From an uncultured Candidatus Peribacteria bacterium (GTDB lineage Bacteria; Patescibacteriota; Gracilibacteria; UBA1369): a DNA stretch of 50,560 bases. The first letter of the stretch is position 1, and the number at the start of each line of letters is the position of its first letter. The stretch covers positions 1-50,560 of the forward strand of contig CAZGKO010000006.1 in the NCBI GenBank assembly GCA_964526005.1. The letters run 5' to 3'. The translations under genes and the position numbers were made by a program. Positions 1 through 10,067 of the stretch are shown piece by piece. Under the pieces are notes generated by a model, which was given only the letters and a program-made list of their open reading frames with translations, did not search any database and had not been told where the DNA came from.

Positions 1-684
1 ACAAAAATCAGCTTTTTTAAGAAAATCTAAAATTTTATCTTTCTTATTCCCATCCTTTTTAAATAACCCCATTGTATATCCACGGTAATTTCCACTATCA
101 GGACCACTTATAACATTTATATTTTTAAATCCTTCAACTATCTGTATAGCAAGCTCATTGTTCCATTGTGAAGCAGCTGATAAAAACAAAACTTCTTTTC
201 TTGTCTTTATTTCAGCAACATCTTTACTAATTTTAAAATCAGCATAAACTTTAATATTTTGCTTTTTTCTTGTTAAGTATTGTTTTTCTTTACCAGAGGC
301 CCAAACTTCAAATAAATTTTCTGTATCAATTTCATTTTTCAAAATAGAAAAGTTATATTTAAATATTTTTTTACCCATTGAAAAAACAACTTTGAAAAAG
401 ACAGGCTTGCCTTTTTCGGAAGATAATGCAAATGGCTGATATGGTAAAATTGCCCCCTCAGAATTGTTGGCAGAATTGATTACACCATTTCGTAATAAGA
501 TGAAAGCTTGTAATATTGTACTTTTTCCCGAAGCATTTGGTCCATAAATTAAAGATGTTTTGAGTAGATTTTCTCCATTACTATCAAAAGTATGTTCGCT
601 TTTTCGTGCAAACATAGAAAAAACAACTCTCTTTTTAAAGATTTTAAAATTTTCTACCGAAAATTCAATAATTGATATTCTCAT
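1..684 (-). CDS. AAA_21/ABC-like ATPase, N-terminal 228 codons only (gene runs off the left edge)
   Basis: This ORF is absent from the supplied track because it has no in-window stop. My reverse-strand translation from the ATG at 684..682 stays open to base 1: MRISIIEFSVENFKIF...SLIYGPNASGKSTILQAFILLRNG...LFLSAASQWNNELA. The Walker A motif is GPNASGKST. It lies on the same strand as res, 136 nt downstream of it. Confidence 0.7.
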   Translation of the reverse strand, partial: MRISIIEFSVENFKIFKKRVVFSMFARKSEHTFDSNGENLLKTSLIYGPNASGKSTILQAFILLRNGVINSANNSEGAILPYQPFALSSEKGKPVFFKVVFSMGKKIFKYNFSILKNEIDTENLFEVWASGKEKQYLTRKKQNIKVYADFKISKDVAEIKTRKEVLFLSAASQWNNELAIQIVEGFKNINVISGPDSGNYRGYTMGLFKKDGNKKDKILDFLKKADFC

Positions 685-708
685 AATTTTGTAAATTATT
701 TACTCAAA

Positions 709-735
709 TACACTATAAGTATATATTATAGTGTA
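709..735. promoter_or_regulatory. Perfect 9-bp inverted repeat (TACACTATA-N9-TATAGTGTA) between res and the AAA ATPase gene
   Basis: Read directly from the sequence, with a TATAAT-like sequence on the minus strand inside it. It could be an operator or a weak terminator. Function unknown. Confidence 0.3.
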
Positions 736-820
736 AAATAATGCGAGCTTCTGTAAAAAAATTACAAAACATCTTTTAAATCTTATTTACAACCTTTCTT
801 TTCAATTTTGTTCATTATAA

Positions 821-3496
821 TTATTTACTAAAATTAGTCATCAATTCTGCAAAACTTTTTGGTGTATATTTATCCCATTGTTCTTGTTTTACATAAAGCA
901 TTTTGTATTCAATCTTTTTTTGTCTTTCATTTGCATCTTTGCACCACTGCTCCAATCTCTTTATTTTTTCTATATCATTCAAATCTTCTCTTCCTTTTGT
1001 CTCCACAATATAAATTGTTTTATTGTCTGTTTTAACAAAGAAATCAGGGTAGTAACTTGATATTGCTCCGCTCGCATTTTTGTAATCAATTTTGAAATGA
1101 ATTTCAAAATAGTTTTTTGCAAAAGAAAGCACATCATCAGCACTTTCCAAAAAATCTGCAAATTCCAATTCAAAATCACTATCTCCAACAATTTTATTGA
1201 AAACGCTCTTTTTTGGTAGCAAATATTTTTTATCAGTAACAACAAAAGGTCTGGCACTACTTACTTTTATATAATTTTTTATTTCAGTATCGCCAACATC
1301 TTGTACAGTCAAATCATTTATTTCTTTTTTGAAAGTTTCTACAATAGTTTTTACAGCTTCCAATTCTGATAAATTCCTCAAAATATTTGAGTCACTAAGA
1401 TCAATATTTTCTTTAAACAACTCATTTGTTATAAATTTTTTAACTTTTCCAAAAAGAATATCGTAACAACCAAAAAGGCGTAATTCTTTCATTATTCTTT
1501 GCACAAAAAACCCAACAACACTTTGGTAATTTGGTTCAATGGAACTATTCAAAATCGTTCTGTGATGTTCTTTATCTTCTACAATTTCTTTAAAAACAAT
1601 TTCCTTTTTCTCTTCCTCTGTAAATTGCTTTATATCAATTTTGTCATTTTTAAATTCAGAAATATTCAGCAAGTTAAGATTTTTGTATTCTCTTTGTATT
1701 CTTGGAGTTAAAATTGGTAATTCAATGTCCAAATTTTCAATATCTTTTTTTATATTTTGATTATCAATTTCAATAACTGTTGGTGTAATAGGAGAACCAG
1801 AACGATCCATTCTTCTTTTTTCTAATTCAACACCTTCCGCTTTAATAGACTCTACAAACTCCATAAAAGCAGGTGTACCGATAACGCTCACATATTCTTC
1901 AACATCTTGCCCAAAAAACATTCGGCGAAGTCCTCGCCCCAATGTTTGCTCGGGTAATACTTTAGAATCTGAACTATAAGGTCGCAAACCGACAATTGTT
2001 GTTACATTTTTCACATCCCAACCTTCCTTAAGCATCATCACAGATACAATTACTTTGTACGGACTTTCTGGGTTATCAATTTCATTTGCCTTTTTTCGCA
2101 GATCTTGCAATTCCTTTTCTTTTTTACCTGTTACTGTTTCAGAAATCTCCCCACTTTTGTTTGTGTGAATAGTCAAGACTGCTCCTTTCAATTGCGGATA
2201 GCTTTTTTCTAAAAATTCTGCAACATCATCACAATTTTTCGTATCGTCTGTCATTATAAAAAGAATTGACTTCTTGCCAGTCGGTTCAAGTCCTTTATAA
2301 GTTTTTCCCCACTCTTCAACTCCAAGTCTGATAAAATCTTCGTATTTTTCAGCAAATAAGGAACTTTGTTTTTCTTGTAATTTCCCTCTACTGGCTTCAT
2401 CTGGTACAACTGGATTTTTTACAACTCCCTGATGTATTGCTTCAACCAATGGATAGTCAGAAACAGTCTGTATAAAAATTTCTCCGCGATTATTTTTTGG
2501 TGTAGCGGTAACATCGATTTGCAAAGATAATTTTTTACCTTTTTGCAATAATTTATTATGTATATCTTCAATAGATTTAAACCATGCCATTTTCGGATCA
2601 TGAATGTGATGTGCTTCATCATTAATAATCATTAATTCATCAACATTACGCACTATTTCCCCTAAATCAACTTTTGAATCATTAGTTTTACCAACAACTT
2701 TGCTTCCCATAAAATAATCGGAAGTGTCTTTGTCTTCAAAACTTGCAATCTTCACATCTCCTTCATAAACTCGGTGGATATTTGTAAGAAAAATATTTCC
2801 CGATTTTGAAATTGTTCCAACATCATCTTGCAAATGTAATTTAATTTGAAAATCATCTTCCCAATTTTGTCCTTCATATCCGTTGTCCGGCAAAATCGGA
2901 TCTTCATAAAATATCTTTAATCCCTCAAAATCAGATTTTATTCTGTCTAAAACAATAATGTTTGGCGTGATGAGTAAAAAGTTTTTTGAGAGTTCAGAAT
3001 TTTTCTCATAAAGCTTGTGGAAATATGACCAGGCCAAAAGCAAACTCATCACTTTTGTTTTTCCACTTCCTGTTGCCATTTTTATCACAAGACGAAGCCA
3101 ATCTTCCGTAAACATGTTTGGACTGACTCTACCCAATTTATCAAATTTGATTAAATCATATTTGTTTGTTGCTTTATCAACATCATAAATCCAAATGATT
3201 GTTTCTACAGCTTCTCTTTGTGCATAATAATATTGAAAAGCGACACTTGTTCCATCACTGCCAAAAATAGTATGCGGTTCTTTGAACCACCAATTTAGCA
3301 ACGCTTTTGATGTTTCGCTTGCGTCACCGTAATTATTTTCTCGCCATTTTGCTACTTTTTCACGCAACTCAGGAACAAAAGGTGGCAAGAGCTTTTCATA
3401 CCCCTCTTTTCGCAAATCTTCCTCAGCAGGAAACCACCTAATCGCAGGATCAAGTATTTTAAATTTATCTTTTGGAAAATTTTTGTGTAGTGCCAT
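821..3496 (-). CDS. res: Type III restriction enzyme, Res subunit (SF2 helicase plus C-terminal PD-(D/E)XK nuclease)
   Basis: 891 aa. Contains Walker A MATGSGKTKV, DEAH box INDEAHHIH, helicase motif VI QTLGRGLRR, and the C-terminal nuclease motif YYPDFFVKTDNKTIYIVETKGRED. Shares an operon with a Type III Mod. Confidence 0.9.
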   Translation of the reverse strand: MALHKNFPKDKFKILDPAIRWFPAEEDLRKEGYEKLLPPFVPELREKVAKWRENNYGDASETSKALLNWWFKEPHTIFGSDGTSVAFQYYYAQREAVETIIWIYDVDKATNKYDLIKFDKLGRVSPNMFTEDWLRLVIKMATGSGKTKVMSLLLAWSYFHKLYEKNSELSKNFLLITPNIIVLDRIKSDFEGLKIFYEDPILPDNGYEGQNWEDDFQIKLHLQDDVGTISKSGNIFLTNIHRVYEGDVKIASFEDKDTSDYFMGSKVVGKTNDSKVDLGEIVRNVDELMIINDEAHHIHDPKMAWFKSIEDIHNKLLQKGKKLSLQIDVTATPKNNRGEIFIQTVSDYPLVEAIHQGVVKNPVVPDEASRGKLQEKQSSLFAEKYEDFIRLGVEEWGKTYKGLEPTGKKSILFIMTDDTKNCDDVAEFLEKSYPQLKGAVLTIHTNKSGEISETVTGKKEKELQDLRKKANEIDNPESPYKVIVSVMMLKEGWDVKNVTTIVGLRPYSSDSKVLPEQTLGRGLRRMFFGQDVEEYVSVIGTPAFMEFVESIKAEGVELEKRRMDRSGSPITPTVIEIDNQNIKKDIENLDIELPILTPRIQREYKNLNLLNISEFKNDKIDIKQFTEEEKKEIVFKEIVEDKEHHRTILNSSIEPNYQSVVGFFVQRIMKELRLFGCYDILFGKVKKFITNELFKENIDLSDSNILRNLSELEAVKTIVETFKKEINDLTVQDVGDTEIKNYIKVSSARPFVVTDKKYLLPKKSVFNKIVGDSDFELEFADFLESADDVLSFAKNYFEIHFKIDYKNASGAISSYYPDFFVKTDNKTIYIVETKGREDLNDIEKIKRLEQWCKDANERQKKIEYKMLYVKQEQWDKYTPKSFAELMTNFSK

Positions 3497-3511
3497 GTTA
3501 TTTTAGTTAAT

Positions 3512-3587
3512 ATGCAAAGAGAATAGTCAATTTAGTGCTTTTATAAACGGTTTTAATTCTCTTTGCATTAGCTTTTGTAAAGAGAAT
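3512..3587. promoter_or_regulatory. Three copies of the motif (G/T)(C/T)AAAGAGAAT in the gap upstream of res, two of them forming a 13-bp perfect inverted repeat
   Basis: ATGCAAAGAGAAT at 3512..3524, its exact reverse complement ATTCTCTTTGCAT at 3556..3568, and GTAAAGAGAAT at 3577..3587. All lie in the 100-nt gap between the AlbA_2-like gene stop and the res start. Confidence 0.4.
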
Positions 3588-3596
3588 ATATTGAGA

Positions 3597-5027
3597 TTAA
3601 ACATTTTTTATCTCATTAATATCTGCTAATTTATACCTTGTGTCTTTTGGATTTTTAGATTCCGGTTCAATTTTTAGCAATAAGCCTTTTTCTACCCATT
3701 TTCTAAACATTCGAGACATTTTATGAGTTTGAACAACATTTGTAATATCTCTCGCTGTTTTGTTATCAATGTATTTCCTTTCTTCTAAATATTTCTTAAT
3801 TTTTTGCCATTCGGTTGGTTGCTCCTCATTAAGAAAGACAACTTTTACAGAATCTTCATACATTGGGTAAGTAAAAAAAATTGGTTGATATAAATTATAT
3901 TTCTTCATTTCTTCTCTCATTGCTCGAACACCCTCGTTCAAATTCAGATTTGGTGGTTCTGGAAATTCCCTTAAGTGCTTAACTAACAAATTATTTCTTT
4001 CTCCATCAGAACGAACATAGCCAATATTTGATTTTGTTATATTGTACGGAAACAACCCAGGACTTAAAATTTCTAACCTATCCTCATAAATTCTTATTTC
4101 TATATCTCTTTTCAAATGATAATCTCTGTGAATAATTGCATTTGTGATGGCTTCTTTAACAGCCCTCTCTGGTATTTTATATATATTTACAAAACCAGAA
4201 CGAACGACTACACCCGATTTTAAAATGTTAAGTACATATTCTTGACTATTTTTTATTAAATCAATCACTGGACCACCAATAGTCTTTGGGTTGCCTAGAT
4301 AATTTGGAGCTTCTCCAAATTTTTCAATTACACCCCTTAATTGAATAACTCTTACTGAACATTTCGTGTCTAGTAAATCTGTAAGAAATTGAGCAAACAA
4401 CAATACTGATGCTCTGGTTGGTTTTAGCTGTTCGTCATCATCTTTCCTTGCTAGTCCTGTTTGAAATAAGATATCTTTTATATCACCATCAGCAATTTTT
4501 CTATTCTTTCTCCAATCGTCAAAATAGTTTGTTTGTAAAAGTTCAAAATCAATATCAACGAGTTCTTTGTCTGCTTTTACAAAACCTTTTGCATAATTAA
4601 ATTTTACAACTTCTTGTGGGGTCAATCTTTTATTACTTTTGTGTAGACGAATCCATACTTGATTATCAATTGCGTAAAAACATTCTGTAGCTTTTGATAT
4701 TCGAAGTATTGCTGCAGTTTTATTTTTTGATATTTCTATAAGCTCTGGTTGTAAATTAGAAACTGGAGGAATTATATTTTTAATTTTATGAAAAATCTCA
4801 TCAAATAATTCTTTATTTTCTTCAATACCAAAAATTCTATCCACACCTTTTAGCTTAGTTTTTTCAGGATCATCAATGCCCAAAAATATATGCCCGCCAT
4901 CAGTATTTGCCATTGCTACTATGGTCTGAATGATTTTTTTCACAATCTTATTACCTTCAAGTCTTTTAAACTCAATTGTTTGTGTCTCTTCTGGAATGTT
5001 CAATATTGTTTCAATAAATTTATTCAT
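3597..5027 (-). CDS. AlbA_2 (Schlafen-core) plus HATPase_c_4-like plus C-terminal wHTH protein (COG2865-type predicted ATP-binding protein/regulator)
   Basis: 476 aa. N-terminal signature ETQTIEFKRLEG...IVAMANTDGGHIFLGIDD. C-terminal signature ERAVKEAITNAIIHRDYHLKRDIEIRIYEDRLEILSPG. The basic tail has a helix-turn-helix-like segment. The start codon lies 6 nt after the mod stop. Confidence 0.75.
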   Translation of the reverse strand: MNKFIETILNIPEETQTIEFKRLEGNKIVKKIIQTIVAMANTDGGHIFLGIDDPEKTKLKGVDRIFGIEENKELFDEIFHKIKNIIPPVSNLQPELIEISKNKTAAILRISKATECFYAIDNQVWIRLHKSNKRLTPQEVVKFNYAKGFVKADKELVDIDFELLQTNYFDDWRKNRKIADGDIKDILFQTGLARKDDDEQLKPTRASVLLFAQFLTDLLDTKCSVRVIQLRGVIEKFGEAPNYLGNPKTIGGPVIDLIKNSQEYVLNILKSGVVVRSGFVNIYKIPERAVKEAITNAIIHRDYHLKRDIEIRIYEDRLEILSPGLFPYNITKSNIGYVRSDGERNNLLVKHLREFPEPPNLNLNEGVRAMREEMKKYNLYQPIFFTYPMYEDSVKVVFLNEEQPTEWQKIKKYLEERKYIDNKTARDITNVVQTHKMSRMFRKWVEKGLLLKIEPESKNPKDTRYKLADINEIKNV

Positions 5028-5033
5028 AATAAT

Positions 5034-7235
5034 TTATACATTAATTTCAATAACCTTGGTCGTGTCATTACCAAAAATATCAATTACTTTAATCGCTACT
5101 TGCATTTTACCTTTTCCTGTAACTTTAAAAGCAGAAGTGAGTTCAAGCGTTCTATCTTTTTTAATTCGGAAACTTTGCCATTCATTTTCAAAAATATAAT
5201 TGCCTGTCCAACCATCGTTTTCTTCGCCAGTTTTTTCATCAATCATTCGCACAATTTCTTTCTTGCTCTCATAATCAAAATCTACTGACCAATAATCAAT
5301 CCAGTCTGTCCACTTTTTTGTCAAAACTTCTTTTTCAATAATCTCTGTTTTTTTATCTTTAGAAATTTTAATCACTTGTCCGTTTTCAATTACAATCTTG
5401 CTTCCACCAGCGCGCAACTTTTCTTCCACCTCGCCAGTATTGTCTTGATTATAGAAAACTGAAAAATCAGTCAGCTCAATTGCAACTTCTTTGGCATTTG
5501 CTCGTCCACGGATAATCGGCTTGGCTTCAATGTATGCCACATCATAAAACCTAACCTGTCCTTTTTCTACCGCTTTTTTATCAAACACCTCTCGCGGAAT
5601 AACTCTAAACTGCACATTCAACCCTTGCTTTTTTGCCTGTTCAAAGTCTAGCCCCATTTCATAATCAAATCCCAAAATATCCGCTTTGGTAACACTTTTT
5701 TCTTTGCACTCAGCAATGACTTTTTCCAAAAAGTCATTGGTAACAGGCATATCAATAGAGCCAACCGCAACCAGTCTGTCTCTCTTTTTACCCACAAACA
5801 TATTAAAAGAATCTACTGGCTCGGCTTTATAGGCAGAAAGAATAAGTGAAACAAACTCTTTTTCTTTTCTCTCTCGTTGTTTTCTTTTTTCTTCTTCTCG
5901 CAAGTTTTCATTCACTTTTAGAAAATCCGCTCGCTCGTATTTTCCGATATTCAAAATCTCAAAAGCTCTGAAATCTTTTTCAGACTTTTTCATTTCTCGT
6001 TGCACACCAATCATTCTTTTGCGAGTGGTGTGAATTGAAAATTTCCCTAAATCAGAACCAATCCATTTTCTGCTCAACTTTTCCGCTACCGCCAAAGTCG
6101 TCCCCGACCCACAGAAAAAGTCAGCAATAAGATCATCTTTGTTTGATGATGCTTTTACTATCCTTTCTAATAAGGTTTCTGGTTTCTGCGTATCGTATCC
6201 TAATCTTTCGTCTCCCATAGCGTTTATCATATTTATATCATCCCAAATATTTTCTACAGGTCTTCCTTTTAACTCATGCGTATATTGTTTAAATTCTGGA
6301 TATTTTGCTCCTTCTGAAAATCTTACCTTATCTTCAGCTTTTAATTTTTCTAGCCGATCTTTTGAATAGGTTGCCATTACTTGCCATCTATATTTACCAT
6401 TTTTATCTTCATATTTAAATCTATCTAGATATTCTTTAGGATATTCACCATATTGAAGATTAAATAAATAATTATTTTTTGATTTTACATATAACAATAT
6501 AGTATCCGTGTTAATCGAAAACTTTTGAGATATGGCTTTTACAGTATTTGTTCGTCTACGCCACAAAATCTCATTCAAAAAATTATTCTTTCCAAAAATT
6601 TCATCCAACACCAACCGCATATAACTGTTCACTCGCCAATCACAATGCACATAAATACTGCCGTCATCCGCCAAAAGTCCGTGCATTAATTTTAGTCGCT
6701 CATAAATCATCGCAATGAAGCTATCCGCACCTTTGCCCCAAGTATCACGATAAGCAATCTCTTCAATCACAGATGGTTTTTTGGTAAAACTTTCTTTTTC
6801 ATCTCCTTCGCCGATTTCTATGTTCATAGAAAAGTCAGCGCCGACATCAAACGGCGGATCAATATAAATTAGTTTCAAGCCGCCTTCGGCTTCAATTTGC
6901 TTTCGCAAAGGTCCATTTTTGAGACTTGATAAAATCAATTTATTATCTCCCCAAATAAGTTTGTTTGACCAGCCTTTTATCTGTCTGCCCGAAGTATCAA
7001 AAAGAGACTCTTGCGAATTGATTTTGTCTTCACTTCTCGGCTCGTCAATATGTTCAATAGTTTGAAAAGGCAAAACAGTATTTTCCACCTCATCAGTCTT
7101 TCCATTCCAAAGCAACTCAACTTCTTTGTCAGTATCAAAAAGCAAAAAACGATATTTCTCTGGCAACGGCTTGCCAGATTCTAGATATTTTATAACATCT
7201 CTCTTTTCGTTATCTGTTAGATTAAGTTTATTCAT
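5034..7235 (-). CDS. mod: Type III R-M DNA methyltransferase, Mod subunit (beta-class N6-adenine MTase)
   Basis: 733 aa. The catalytic motif IV DPPF (LIYIDPPFDVGADF) precedes the SAM motif I (IADFFCGSGTTLAVAEKL), with a long variable region between them. This is the order typical of Type III Mod proteins. Confidence 0.9.
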   Translation of the reverse strand: MNKLNLTDNEKRDVIKYLESGKPLPEKYRFLLFDTDKEVELLWNGKTDEVENTVLPFQTIEHIDEPRSEDKINSQESLFDTSGRQIKGWSNKLIWGDNKLILSSLKNGPLRKQIEAEGGLKLIYIDPPFDVGADFSMNIEIGEGDEKESFTKKPSVIEEIAYRDTWGKGADSFIAMIYERLKLMHGLLADDGSIYVHCDWRVNSYMRLVLDEIFGKNNFLNEILWRRRTNTVKAISQKFSINTDTILLYVKSKNNYLFNLQYGEYPKEYLDRFKYEDKNGKYRWQVMATYSKDRLEKLKAEDKVRFSEGAKYPEFKQYTHELKGRPVENIWDDINMINAMGDERLGYDTQKPETLLERIVKASSNKDDLIADFFCGSGTTLAVAEKLSRKWIGSDLGKFSIHTTRKRMIGVQREMKKSEKDFRAFEILNIGKYERADFLKVNENLREEEKRKQRERKEKEFVSLILSAYKAEPVDSFNMFVGKKRDRLVAVGSIDMPVTNDFLEKVIAECKEKSVTKADILGFDYEMGLDFEQAKKQGLNVQFRVIPREVFDKKAVEKGQVRFYDVAYIEAKPIIRGRANAKEVAIELTDFSVFYNQDNTGEVEEKLRAGGSKIVIENGQVIKISKDKKTEIIEKEVLTKKWTDWIDYWSVDFDYESKKEIVRMIDEKTGEENDGWTGNYIFENEWQSFRIKKDRTLELTSAFKVTGKGKMQVAIKVIDIFGNDTTKVIEINV

Positions 7236-7384
7236 AATAATTATTTCTGTATTAAACCATCAACACCAACTTCAAGAACTTTCGCAATCGTGGAAAGTGT
7301 ATCACAATAGTTGGATTTTGGTGCGTGCGAGTTCTCCGTCGCTTTCGCGAGCACAAAACTTCCAAAAATGCTGAAATTGTAAAT

Positions 7385-7474
7385 TGGCGGAGAGAGAGGG
7401 ATTCGAACCCCCGAGGAGCTTGCACCCCTAACGGTTTTCAAGACCGCCGCGTTCGACCACTCTGCCATCTCTCC
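7385..7474 (-). tRNA. tRNA-Ser (anticodon UGA), long variable arm, CCA encoded
   Basis: The reverse complement reads GGAGAGATGGCAGAGTGGTCGAACGCGGCGGTCTTGAAAACCGTTAGGGGTGCAAGCTCCTCGGGGGTTCGAATCCCTCTCTCTCCGCCA. It has a 7-bp acceptor stem, anticodon loop CTTGAAA and T-loop GGTTCGAATCC. Length 90 nt. Confidence 0.9.
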
Positions 7475-7625
7475 ATTGGGTCTAAAGCCTCCCGATTTTA
7501 AACAAAAACCAACCTCCATGCAAGTTATATTTATTCAGAACTTTTTAAGTAGTAATTTAATCTTCACTTAATTTAATTTTAATTTTTCCCCTTAAAAGGA
7601 ACAGTGTCTTTTAAAATTTACCTGA

Positions 7626-7979
7626 ATGAAAACATTAACACCAGTTCGACCTCCATCCTCACAAAATTTTCAAGAAGATAAATTTTGGTACTTTCAAAAT
7701 TTTATCATCAACTCTTCTAGTCACGAAATTATTACTAAAAATCAAATTATCATCCGACTTCGCAAGAAAGAATTTGAATTACTGCAATGTCTCTATTTCA
7801 ATCCTAATCGTTTAATTAATAAACAGGAATTATTAGAATTAGTATGGAATTATGATTTATATATAAATACCAATACCCTTGAAGTACATCTCTGTAAATT
7901 AAGAAATAAATTAAAAAAAGCCGGTCACAAAAATTTAATTGAAACTATTCACGGAGCCGGCTATCGTTTTAATTTCTAA
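7626..7979 (+). CDS. Stand-alone OmpR/PhoB-type winged-helix DNA-binding protein (no receiver domain)
   Basis: 117 aa. Contains RLRKKEFELLQCLYFNPNRLINKQELLELVW...NTLEVHLCKLRNKL...IETIHGAGYRF, which matches the Trans_reg_C pattern. Confidence 0.7.
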   Translation: MKTLTPVRPPSSQNFQEDKFWYFQNFIINSSSHEIITKNQIIIRLRKKEFELLQCLYFNPNRLINKQELLELVWNYDLYINTNTLEVHLCKLRNKLKKAGHKNLIETIHGAGYRFNF

Positions 7980-9209: not shown

Positions 9210-10067
9210 TTAATTATTATTTATTTTTTGAATACGCTTGATAGAAAGAGCATAACCAGTTTTATCATCAACTTCAATCAAAACCGCTTGAAAAATCCAT
9301 GGTTCGGGAGCCACATCATGTTTAATCGGCACTCCCATTAATTGATGTTTAACAATAATATGTGGACTGATACCAATCACTGAATTCATCGGACCATTCA
9401 ATCCTACATCGCTTAAATATGCTGTCCCCTGCGGAAAAATCTGTTCATCGGCTGTTTGCACATGGGTATGTGTACCAATTACAGCACTTACTTTCCCATC
9501 CATAAAATATCCAAAAGCTAATTTTTCACCAGTCGCTTCTCCATGAATATCAATAAATACCGCATCATAACCTGCTTTTTTAATCCCAATCACATTATCA
9601 TTTTTACTATATGTATCTGGATCAGATTCTTTTTTTAAAATACCGCGCTTAATTAAAATCTTTTCAACACTACGAAATGGATCATTCACTATTCCCGGCA
9701 TAAATAATTGTCCACTAACATTGATTATCAAAATTTTCCGTTCATCTTTTAAAACCGCTACTCCATCACCGTGTCCAGGAGCATCATCTAAATAATTTAA
9801 GGGTCTAAGTAATAGAGTATCTTTTTTATTTAAGTAGGGATAAATATCTTTATCTTTCCAAATATGATTTCCAGAAGTAAAAAAATCTACTCCAGCTTTT
9901 TTCATCTCTTCTAATTTATTTGGAGAAACTCCTTTACCATGATTAATATTTTCAATATTGGCAATAACCAAATCCAGTTTTCTTTTTTTTCTTAAATCAG
10001 GTAATAGCGTCTTCACCGCATTTCTTCCAGGCTTTCCAAATACGTCACCGATAAATAATATTTTCAT
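9210..10067 (-). CDS. ymdB: YmdB-family metallophosphoesterase (2',3'-cyclic-nucleotide phosphodiesterase family)
   Basis: 285 aa. Contains MKILFIGDVFGKPGRNAV...NIENINHGKG...TSGNHIW...DIHGEATGEK...GTHTHVQTAD, typical of the TIGR00282-type family. Confidence 0.8.
   Translation of the reverse strand: MKILFIGDVFGKPGRNAVKTLLPDLRKKRKLDLVIANIENINHGKGVSPNKLEEMKKAGVDFFTSGNHIWKDKDIYPYLNKKDTLLLRPLNYLDDAPGHGDGVAVLKDERKILIINVSGQLFMPGIVNDPFRSVEKILIKRGILKKESDPDTYSKNDNVIGIKKAGYDAVFIDIHGEATGEKLAFGYFMDGKVSAVIGTHTHVQTADEQIFPQGTAYLSDVGLNGPMNSVIGISPHIIVKHQLMGVPIKHDVAPEPWIFQAVLIEVDDKTGYALSIKRIQKINNN

Follow-up and report, generated by a model that had tools for sequence, protein, structure and literature searches.

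A Schlafen-ATPase gene as a probable autonomous defence cargo at the mod-res junction of a Type III restriction-modification operon

We analyzed a 50,560-nt stretch of contig CAZGKO010000006.1 (GCA_964526005.1) from an uncultured Candidatus Peribacteria bacterium (the window; all coordinates are window positions unless a locus is named). Here, a 476-aa open reading frame (ORF) at 3597..5027 on the minus strand, which we call X, lies between the mod and res genes of a Type III restriction-modification (R-M) operon. We consider it probable that X is an autonomous single-gene embedded defence effector, carried as exchangeable cargo in the mod-res junction. X is found in Type I, Type III, and standalone settings, and a dedication to Type III systems is not supported. 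An earlier note on this DNA had read X as a possible third component of the Type III system, a sensor or effector held in check by Mod/Res, or a dedicated regulator of res. This interpretation is partly supported by our analysis, and its dedicated-component idea is largely refuted. The genes of the operon are as follows.

5034..7235, minus strand: mod, Type III, 733 aa, beta-class N6/N4 DNA methyltransferase, first gene of the operon
3597..5027, minus strand: X, predicted Schlatpase-HTH (HTH, helix-turn-helix), 476 aa, ATG start, probable embedded cargo gene
821..3496, minus strand: res, Type III, 891 aa, superfamily 2 (SF2) helicase with a C-terminal PD-(D/E)xK-type endonuclease

Performing profile searches, we find that Mod matches PF01555 (E 1.6e-44) and the PADLOC model MTase_III (E 5.6e-111); both the DPPF and the FCGSG motifs are present in its translation. 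Res matches ResIII (E 1.9e-18) and RE_endonuc/TnsA-like_N in Pfam, REase_III in PADLOC (E 5.8e-21), and NF046055 with an E value of 3e-86 that is still under the cut-off of that model. With Mod upstream of a Res that carries an SF2 helicase and a C-terminal endonuclease, all on one strand, the two genes are apparently a real and intact Type III pair, as judged from their sequences. The operon departs from the two-gene arrangement in that res does not stand directly behind mod. The TAA stop codon of mod is followed by attatt and then by the ATG of X, and the stop codon of X lies 100 nt from the res start. The mod-to-res distance of 1,537 nt is taken up by X and the element at its 3′ end. We saw no terminator-like site upstream of X at the mod-X junction. 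Thus, the embedding described in the earlier note, a co-oriented 476-aa ORF coupled to mod by a 6-nt gap with res behind it, was confirmed.

By its sequence and predicted structure, X is a Schlatpase-HTH, in which a predicted Schlafen nuclease is joined to a PF13749 GHKL ATPase and a C-terminal winged helix. Its domains are predicted at these positions.

4623..4988, minus strand: Schlafen/AlbA_2 nuclease domain of X (predicted), aa 14-135, with E14, E19, and K21 (Ex4ExK), the AMAN box at 38-41, and D53
3828..4268, minus strand: GHKL (Bergerat-fold) ATPase of X (predicted), aa ~254-400, with E292/N296 (ExxxN) and the SPG G-box at 322-324
3618..3812, minus strand: winged helix-turn-helix of X (predicted), aa ~406-470, AlphaFold2 H-H-H-E-E, block predicted local distance difference test (pLDDT) 78-90

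The N-terminal AlbA_2 and C-terminal HATPase_c_4 domains that had been named from motifs alone were both recovered by Pfam, in this order on one chain and well above the gathering scores. SLFN_AlbA_2 (PF04326) covers residues 14-135 (E 1e-15, 58.8 bits against a cut-off of 25.3), and HATPase_c_4 (PF13749) covers residues 308-385 (E 3.8e-12, 46.5 bits against a cut-off of 26). The motifs are ETQTIEFKR at 14-22, AMANTDGGHIFLGIDD at 38-53, AITNAIIHRDY at 293-303, and DRLEILSPG at 316-324. The winged helix gave no Pfam match, and its presence was borne out by the AlphaFold2 model, with helices at 406-416, 422-429, and 434-446 and strands at 450-453 and 464-467. The model divides X into four parts, namely the Schlafen domain (1-135), a mixed linker (137-250), the ATPase (~254-400), and the winged helix (406-470).

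The Schlafen core fold proposed earlier also finds support in sequence and structure comparisons. The catalytic C-lobes of SLFN11 and SLFN14 align to X over E14/E19/K21 and D52-D53, and the N-terminal domain of X retrieved SLFN12/11/13/14/5 in Foldseek at E values of 7e-5 to 1e-3, with 2kyy also matched. X thus has the AlbA_2/Schlafen C-lobe-like fold of prokaryotic Schlafens (pSlfns) in prediction, together with the Ex4(E/D)xK motif, a downstream acidic residue, and a SAFAN-like box (A38-M-A-N41). The middle domain matched the ATP-binding domains of PhoQ and PDK, and the best match of full-length X was 3lmm (E 2e-19). The ATP-binding residues of Schlatpases, an N-box Glu/Asn pair (E292, N296) and a G-box, are present, and E292/N296 correspond to E314/N318 of RzAgo, which binds and hydrolyses ATP experimentally (bioRxiv 10.64898/2026.05.29.728809).

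Conservation follows the same residues. Across 27 homologues of 58-83% identity, E14, E19, F20, K21, N41, G44, G45, G50, and D53 are invariant in the nuclease part, as are E292, N296, H300-Y303, P323, and G324 in the ATPase part; the S322-P-G324 G-box is invariant or nearly so. All Type III- and Type I-embedded copies examined retain the nuclease and ATPase motifs. In PADLOC, the SLFN-pAgo (pAgo, prokaryotic Argonaute) model matched residues 15-405 of X (E 6.9e-24) through the N-terminal part of the model only, and the Aga models matched too. PADLOC, including its v2 candidates, gave no dedicated model for X as a system, and NCBIfam gave just a sub-threshold match to RsbW (GHKL).

We checked the insertion point from the R-M side by a metagenome scan with the window Res. 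This census yielded 80 loci (L092-L171) with Res 67-94% identical, 74 of them with upstream sequence. The canonical order, with res directly after mod, was seen in 26 of these 74 sister loci, where mod abuts res with a 4-8-nt gap. The remaining 48 showed a mod-res spacing of 100-2,900 nt, nearly always with 1-5 co-oriented ORFs inside. The inserts formed 38 blastp families; one of these is a partial mod where the mod end was unmapped, leaving ~37 cargo families. Counting one Pfam call per insert family, Schlatpase cargo occurs in seven loci (one copy truncated), NYN RNase cargo in at least eight (in several cases beside WYL, in one beside a trypsin-like protease), DUF3800 in six, and Bro-N in four. 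RhuM, DUF1016/YhcG, Fic, SIR2 with HerA, AAA_15/AAA_21 ATPases, GIY-YIG, HEPN, HNH, and STAND-like NTPases make up other cargo. Cargo representatives matched PDC-S02, PDC-S05, PDC-S13, HerA, and mad8 in PADLOC, and the three PDC candidates had been proposed from their embedding within Type I, BREX, and DISARM loci (bioRxiv 10.1101/2024.01.29.577857). Several cargo families had no Pfam match, including proteins of 279, 269, 306, and 186 aa. Examples of cargo lie at L168:4159-4998, L097:4186-4995, L163:459-1379, L158:1259-1819, and L132:3863-4985.

In a neighbour-joining tree of Res, cargo types are interleaved throughout, and Schlatpases appear at no fewer than six separate places. The nearest Res relatives of the window are cargo-free (L092, 94% identical) or carry RhuM (L101, 93%). 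In L104, Res is 89% identical and the Schlatpase is barely alignable. In L014, Res is 24% identical and X 53%, and the Type I copy in L081 has an X that is 83% identical. The interleaving of cargo and the incongruence of X and Res together indicate that the junction is a hypervariable cargo slot and that X is one interchangeable occupant.

When res is aligned over L092-L171, no other 30-nt window of the gene is as conserved at nucleotide level as its first (3467-3496; rank 1 of 89), where third codon positions score 0.63 and the gene as a whole averages 0.47. Windows at the 3′ end of mod do not stand out, ranking 17th and 29th of 73. The conservation at the res 5′ end hints at a constraint beyond the protein, e.g. 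translation initiation or recombination, and homology arms for cassette exchange are only partially supported. As separate observations on the pre-res spacer, L113, L107, L159, and L102 share a 'GTCAATAGTTATCCACA' motif ~20-35 nt upstream of the res ATG with a perfect DnaA-box-like TTATCCACA, their cargos being NYN versus DUF3800, and L104, with its Schlatpase, has the same pre-res spacer as L133 and L106, with STAND-like cargo. Part of this spacer seems to belong to the res side and not to the cargo.

The X-side census, taking one genome per species, covered 80 loci from many phyla. Two ORFs on each side of X were searched with Pfam in 72 of them, and neighbours were called from Pfam counts and iterated phmmer, plain blastp clustering being too insensitive. 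An R-M-like gene of Type I, IIG-like, or III character directly adjoins X in 24 of the 72 loci, always on the same strand; the mod-X-res order was found in just 5 of 80 loci (L008, L011, L014, L074, and the more divergent L003). Upstream of X we counted Eco57I-type methylases (10), ResIII (8), N6_N4_Mtase (5), HsdM (4), HsdS (3), and BREX parts, and a methyltransferase is directly upstream in 18 of the 72. ResIII was found downstream in seven, and housekeeping genes were plentiful on either side.

The context of X changes even among close homologues. Copies that are 83% and 82% identical are flanked by a Type I hsdR on one side and an hsdM-hsdS fusion on the other, and a 69% identical copy is found in the order hsdR-X-hsdM-hsdS. 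Copies of 72% and 70% identity are in mod-X-res operons, and those of 81%, 75%, 74%, and 66% identity are standalone. When embedded in R-M loci, X starts 2-11 nt behind the first gene and leaves ~85-100 nt to the next. Its distribution is patchy and horizontally scattered across phyla at high identity. As a side observation, L081, the Type I operon with the 83% identical X, carries a reverse transcriptase gene (RVT_1, 463 aa; L081:10904-12295) directly behind the hsdM-hsdS fusion, which may be a further embedded defence.

Several loci retain X after the R-M genes are gone. In L090, the last 14 mod codons (…FGNDTMKVSKVNV and stop) are found just upstream of X and the first ~10 res codons (ALHKNFPKSP) downstream (5940-6000 and 7505-7540 of that locus). 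Similar mod/res stubs surround intact X at L066:7960-8000 and 9515-9600, L002:9531-9605, and L078:523-558, as well as in L013 (2888-2941, 3217-3243, and 4784-4861). In at least four lineages from different phyla, X is still an intact ORF with its motifs where both R-M genes are gone, and housekeeping-flanked copies of X also have R-M relic stubs. The stubs around an intact X show that X persists after R-M gene loss. L013 has an unusual order of its own, with the res 5′ stub fused in frame to the mod 3′ stub downstream of X, unlike the simple decay of one operon.

Two parts of the earlier interpretation are not supported. A dedicated third component of a Type III system does not agree with 82-83% identical copies in Type I operons, with standalone copies and relics, or with a slot that is empty or filled by ~37 families. 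A dedicated regulator of res does not agree with the Type I operons, where the gene behind X encodes a methyltransferase and not a nuclease.

X also carries a conserved element at its 3′ end, consisting of three repeats in the X-res spacer; all close homologues of X have this element directly 3′ of the gene.

3507..3588, minus strand: 82-nt element of the X-res spacer, matched by a covariance model
3576-3586, minus strand: arm 1, TTCTCTTTACA
3557-3567, minus strand: arm 2, the reverse complement of arm 1
3513-3523, minus strand: arm 3, TTCTCTTTGCA, 63 nt behind arm 1 and 16 nt ahead of the res ATG

The inverted repeat of the window element, ATTCTCTTTACA-N8-TGCAAAGAGAAT, is directly behind the X stop codon. 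In 13 of 14 non-redundant elements the third arm follows 63-64 nt after the first (six helical turns), and it is placed 11-25 nt ahead of the ATG of the next gene. The half-site varies by lineage (TCTCTTTGCA, TTAYTTGCA, TTACTTGTT, TTTATTTAC), with all three copies changing in step. Arms 1 and 2 are paired in 86% of cells, with double changes in 9 of 12 pairs, and arms 2 and 3 in 92% of cells, with double changes in 6 of 12; in both pairings the compensatory changes well exceed shuffled and slid controls. A covariance model of 14 copies was searched in 1.06 Mb of related loci. It gave ~23 matches, 19 of them with E <= 0.002, and every one was directly 3′ of an X homologue on the X strand. These matches span Type III, Type I, relic, and standalone contexts (L001:8342-8423, L081:8429-8510, L088:7427-7508, L090:7427-7508, L120:4914-4995, and more), and none was behind other cargo in this sequence set. 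By a stringent repeat test, the layout was recovered from 14 of 34 loci whose X has 50% identity or more, versus 7 of 3,400 dinucleotide shuffles, and with unrelated half-sites in three convincing distant homologues.

In L007, L011, L012, L013, L017, L019, and L066, the first hairpin of the element is inside the X coding region, as a short C-terminal extension (…LFA…/…LFT…), and TTATTTGCA reads Leu-Phe-Ala in the translated copies. Because this hairpin is coding in some lineages, the element is conserved whether it is translated or not. An Rfam scan of 3300-7700 returned tRNA only, with no match in the X-res spacer. Scanning this spacer with consensus sequences, we found no sigma-70-like promoter, and the post-stop hairpin has no T-run behind it; the element is thus assigned as neither a promoter nor an intrinsic terminator.

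The element could consist of phased DNA operators for the winged helix or of two mutually exclusive RNA helices. The minimum-energy fold of the window element uses arm 2:arm 3 (z = -2.7). G.U pairs outnumber A.C mismatches 12 to 4 in arm 2:arm 3, as for the sense strand, and are outnumbered 4 to 10 in arm 1:arm 2, as for the opposite strand, a comparison confounded by relatedness. Variants of the recognition helix correlate with variants of the half-site, and this correlation is confounded by shared ancestry. The element appears to be novel, i.e. not described in the searchable literature.

X is an unremarkable member of a very large family. Schlatpases (Schlafen plus PF13749 GHKL) number 60,692 non-redundant proteins, most with a C-terminal HTH (bioRxiv 10.64898/2026.05.29.728809). 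The Slfn-HisKinase-HTH architecture makes up 19.2% of 5,930 prokaryotic Schlafens, the second most common, and 69.6% of prokaryotic Schlafen genes are within 10 kb of defence genes (PMC13056530). The earlier note had taken Schlafen RNases of eukaryotes as its analogy, and experiments on other prokaryotic Schlafens bear it out. Two of them, RorSlfn5 and EcoSlfn7, protect E. coli, one cutting tRNA upon a phage cue (PMC13056530), and in SLFN-pAgo, a defence proven by experiment, the Schlatpase module acts as the effector (bioRxiv 10.64898/2026.05.29.728809).

By analogy with these proteins, X is probably an ATP-assembled tRNase. It would be transcribed together with mod from the operon promoter. 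If it behaves like the Schlatpase module of RzAgo, binding of ATP by the GHKL domain would make X form dimers or tetramers, and this assembly would bring together two Schlafen domains of one lobe each as an active RNase with two lobes. As for RorSlfn5 and EcoSlfn7, a phage cue would then lead to tRNA cleavage and stop translation, a second line behind restriction. The cue may be sensed by the winged helix or the linker region, and not by Mod or Res. By being embedded, X would be transcribed and transferred together with the R-M genes, a benefit already suggested for other embedded systems. The 3′ element might restore expression of the downstream gene after insertion, or might be the nucleic-acid ligand of X itself.

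A bolder form of this scheme, which we hold to be unlikely, makes X and the 82-nt element a self-contained mobile cassette that is shuffled, with dozens of others, through the Type III mod-res junction. The element would then be the ligand of X, either as a phased DNA operator or as an RNA whose mutually exclusive arm 1:arm 2 and arm 2:arm 3 helices restrain the Schlafen RNase, much like the RNA of a type III toxin-antitoxin system, and X would be a generic back-up to restriction responding to a cue common to all R-M types.

Other explanations of X have to be weighed against an autonomous effector. Following the precedent of PrrC that the earlier note had raised, X might be a latent RNase held by the R-M complex and freed when a phage anti-restriction factor disables Mod/Res. 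More generally, it might guard any R-M system by sensing, for example, DNA-mimic inhibitors via its DNA-binding tail. Such a guardian would account for the nested, co-oriented, and tightly coupled position of X beside R-M genes (24 of 72 loci, one strand, a methyltransferase upstream in 18), which recurs in Type I, IIG-like, and III settings. It also has precedents in PrrC of EcoprrI and in the PARIS system, and X is a predicted RNase with family members shown to cut tRNA. A specific latch is hard to square with 82-83% identical copies that serve structurally unrelated Type I and Type III complexes. Moreover, X and Res do not co-diverge (L104, L014), intact X outlasts both R-M genes in at least four lineages, and Pfam finds no PrrC domain in X. 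About two-thirds of the homologues have no adjoining R-M gene, whereas PrrC is almost exclusively embedded. The relics, the Type I/III promiscuity at more than 80% identity, and the X/Res incongruence together argue against an obligate three-component enzyme and against a PrrC-type latch. Nothing specific in the sequences supports a PrrC-like latent guard, which we disfavour, and a guardian role of either kind looks quite improbable to us.

Alternatively, X might act on transcription. Here, the winged helix would bind the three phased repeats and set or delay expression of the downstream gene (res in the window), as C-proteins do. The C-terminal winged helix in the model of X, the inverted pair with a third copy six helical turns on and 11-25 nt ahead of the next ATG, and the concerted change of the half-sites, unrelated in distant homologues with the same layout, are all consistent with a controller. 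So are recognition-helix variants that track the half-sites, albeit with the confounding by shared ancestry, and RptR, a repeat-binding repressor of R-M islands, is a precedent. Yet the downstream gene is res in Type III loci, hsdM or hsdMS in Type I loci, and unrelated or absent in standalone ones, with the element kept throughout. The same cassette thus precedes a nuclease or a methyltransferase gene, for which a delay would have opposite consequences, and this makes a single regulatory logic implausible. An invariant nuclease triad and ATPase box would be superfluous in a plain regulator, no sigma-70-like promoter was detected in the spacer, and the repeats are equally able to form alternative RNA helices. 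We find a transcriptional controller unlikely. We give even less credence to a non-defence role, in which X would process nucleic acids or act as a regulator in some general way, in line with the old COG2865 annotation ('transcriptional regulator / RecG-like'), and would collect in R-M loci only because these are permissive sinks for insertions; this we regard as very improbable. In its favour, 30.4% of prokaryotic Schlafen genes have no defence gene nearby, and the HisKinase fusions put to the test did not defend (PMC13056530). PADLOC has no model for X as a system, and homologues lie among housekeeping genes, as in L001, between IMP dehydrogenase and GMP synthase, and in L090, beside the ATP synthase operon. 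But the housekeeping-flanked copies bear R-M relic stubs, and the other occupants of the slot are overwhelmingly of defence type (NYN, HEPN, SIR2-HerA, ABC ATPases, Fic, RhuM; PDC-S02/S05/S13). The Schlatpase module is the effector of SLFN-pAgo defence, and X is scattered over phyla in the patchy, horizontal manner described above.

The reading of X as an autonomous defence effector has points against it as well. The structural model of X is moderate (pLDDT 75, predicted template modelling score 0.47), with the ATP-lid at 325-359 below pLDDT 50. Neither of two Slfn-HisKinase fusions protected E. coli against the phage panel of the study that tried them (PMC13056530). The earlier note's remark that neither of its proposed roles had experimental proof for this family in Type III systems appears to hold for the searchable literature. 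The adjacency to R-M genes exceeds a loose defence-island association, so that a generic functional link to R-M is possible. With its winged helix and phased repeats, X could also be a transcription regulator.

The surroundings of the operon include two further features on the same strand.

1..684, minus strand: ABC-type ATPase gene (AAA_21/AAA_15), PF13304 E 1e-9, cut by the window end
7385..7474, minus strand: tRNA-Ser(UGA), found by ARAGORN (Rfam tRNA 53.9 bits), just upstream of mod, flank of the island

Considering mod-X-res together with the flanking tRNA-Ser and the ABC-type ATPase gene, this part of the window is a small defence island. The ATPase gene starts 137 nt past the res stop codon, is co-oriented, and belongs to the same family as the cargo of L165 and L167; the island thus has at least a third defence-like module. 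No second tRNA-Ser copy marking an island end was found in 1-7600. Divergent from the tRNA-Ser/R-M island, a 117-aa ORF at 7626-7979 on the plus strand consists of an OmpR-type Trans_reg_C DNA-binding domain alone (E 3.7e-23) and lacks a receiver. Around their starts, X and mod (5007-5034 and 7215-7242) agree at 24 of 28 nt (…AATTATTATGAATAAAYTTA…), and a third similar stretch (804-826), right behind the res stop codon, opens a 10-codon ORF (MNKIEKKGCK-stop). This likeness may be AT-rich chance or a common initiation or junction sequence.

These loci offer natural controls, as the operon exists cargo-free, with X, and with other cargos, and X exists without the operon; the guard-versus-autonomous question is thus directly testable. 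Schlatpase-HTH proteins are a very abundant pSlfn class, and the X locus family is an unusually clean natural experiment for their role. The 3′ element provides a concrete candidate ligand or regulatory handle for X. The slot census takes "guilt-by-embedding" to Type III R-M and lists uncharacterised families that share the slot with known defence genes. Judged against the searchable literature, embedding at the Type III mod-res junction and the extent of cargo turnover there appear to be novel. Schlatpase genes in Type I R-M operons, and embedding in Hma, BREX, DISARM, and Type I R-M loci, are already known.

Among known systems, X is close to the Schlatpase proteins of Kuzmenko et al. (bioRxiv 10.64898/2026.05.29.728809) in its domain order, its Ex4ExK and ExxxN motifs, and its short C-terminal HTH. 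Their copies in Poribacteria Type I R-M operons are standalone or fused to HsdS, and X is likewise a standalone gene inside an R-M operon. The host operon of X is Type III, whereas theirs is Type I. Their biochemistry concerns the pAgo-fused version, in which Argonaute is the sensor; X has no Argonaute, and the X-linked 3′ element is not among the features they describe. With the Slfn-HisKinase-HTH class of Perez Taboada et al. (Nat Microbiol 2026, PMC13056530), X shares the architecture, the Ex4(E/D)xK motif, and the defence-island neighbourhood. The pSlfns that defend have other sensors (an Ig-like domain in RorSlfn5, DUF262 in EcoSlfn7), whereas X belongs to the HisKinase class. The best full-length fold match, the structural-genomics protein DIP2311 of Corynebacterium diphtheriae (3lmm), has sequence likeness to X over the GHKL N-box; it is only 15-18% identical, longer (583 aa), and without functional data. 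Controller (C) proteins are small Xre-type HTH proteins with operator boxes upstream of their own gene and res, in contrast to X, a 476-aa protein with enzymatic domains and repeats downstream.

Like X, PrrC in the Type Ic EcoprrI locus lies nested among R-M genes in their orientation; PrrC is a tRNA-targeting RNase, X is predicted to be one, and conceptually each would back up restriction. The folds are unrelated, PrrC having an ABC ATPase and an anticodon-nuclease domain, neither of which we found in the SLFN, GHKL, and winged-helix chain of X. The R-M partner of PrrC silences it by physical contact; most copies of X are not embedded, and X changes R-M type at 83% identity and outlives the loss of R-M genes, unlike the near-obligately embedded PrrC. 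The nearest parallel in locus layout is with embedded defence genes (Payne et al., bioRxiv 10.1101/2024.01.29.577857; TgvAB in a Vibrio Type I locus, PMC11411939), which show co-oriented nesting and variable cargo. X is likewise nested in the same orientation, and the content of its position varies among related loci. The survey of Payne et al. covers Hma, BREX, DISARM, and Type I R-M, with Type III R-M outside it. Unlike the cases in that survey, the insertion point at the X locus is one precise junction of two normally translationally coupled genes.

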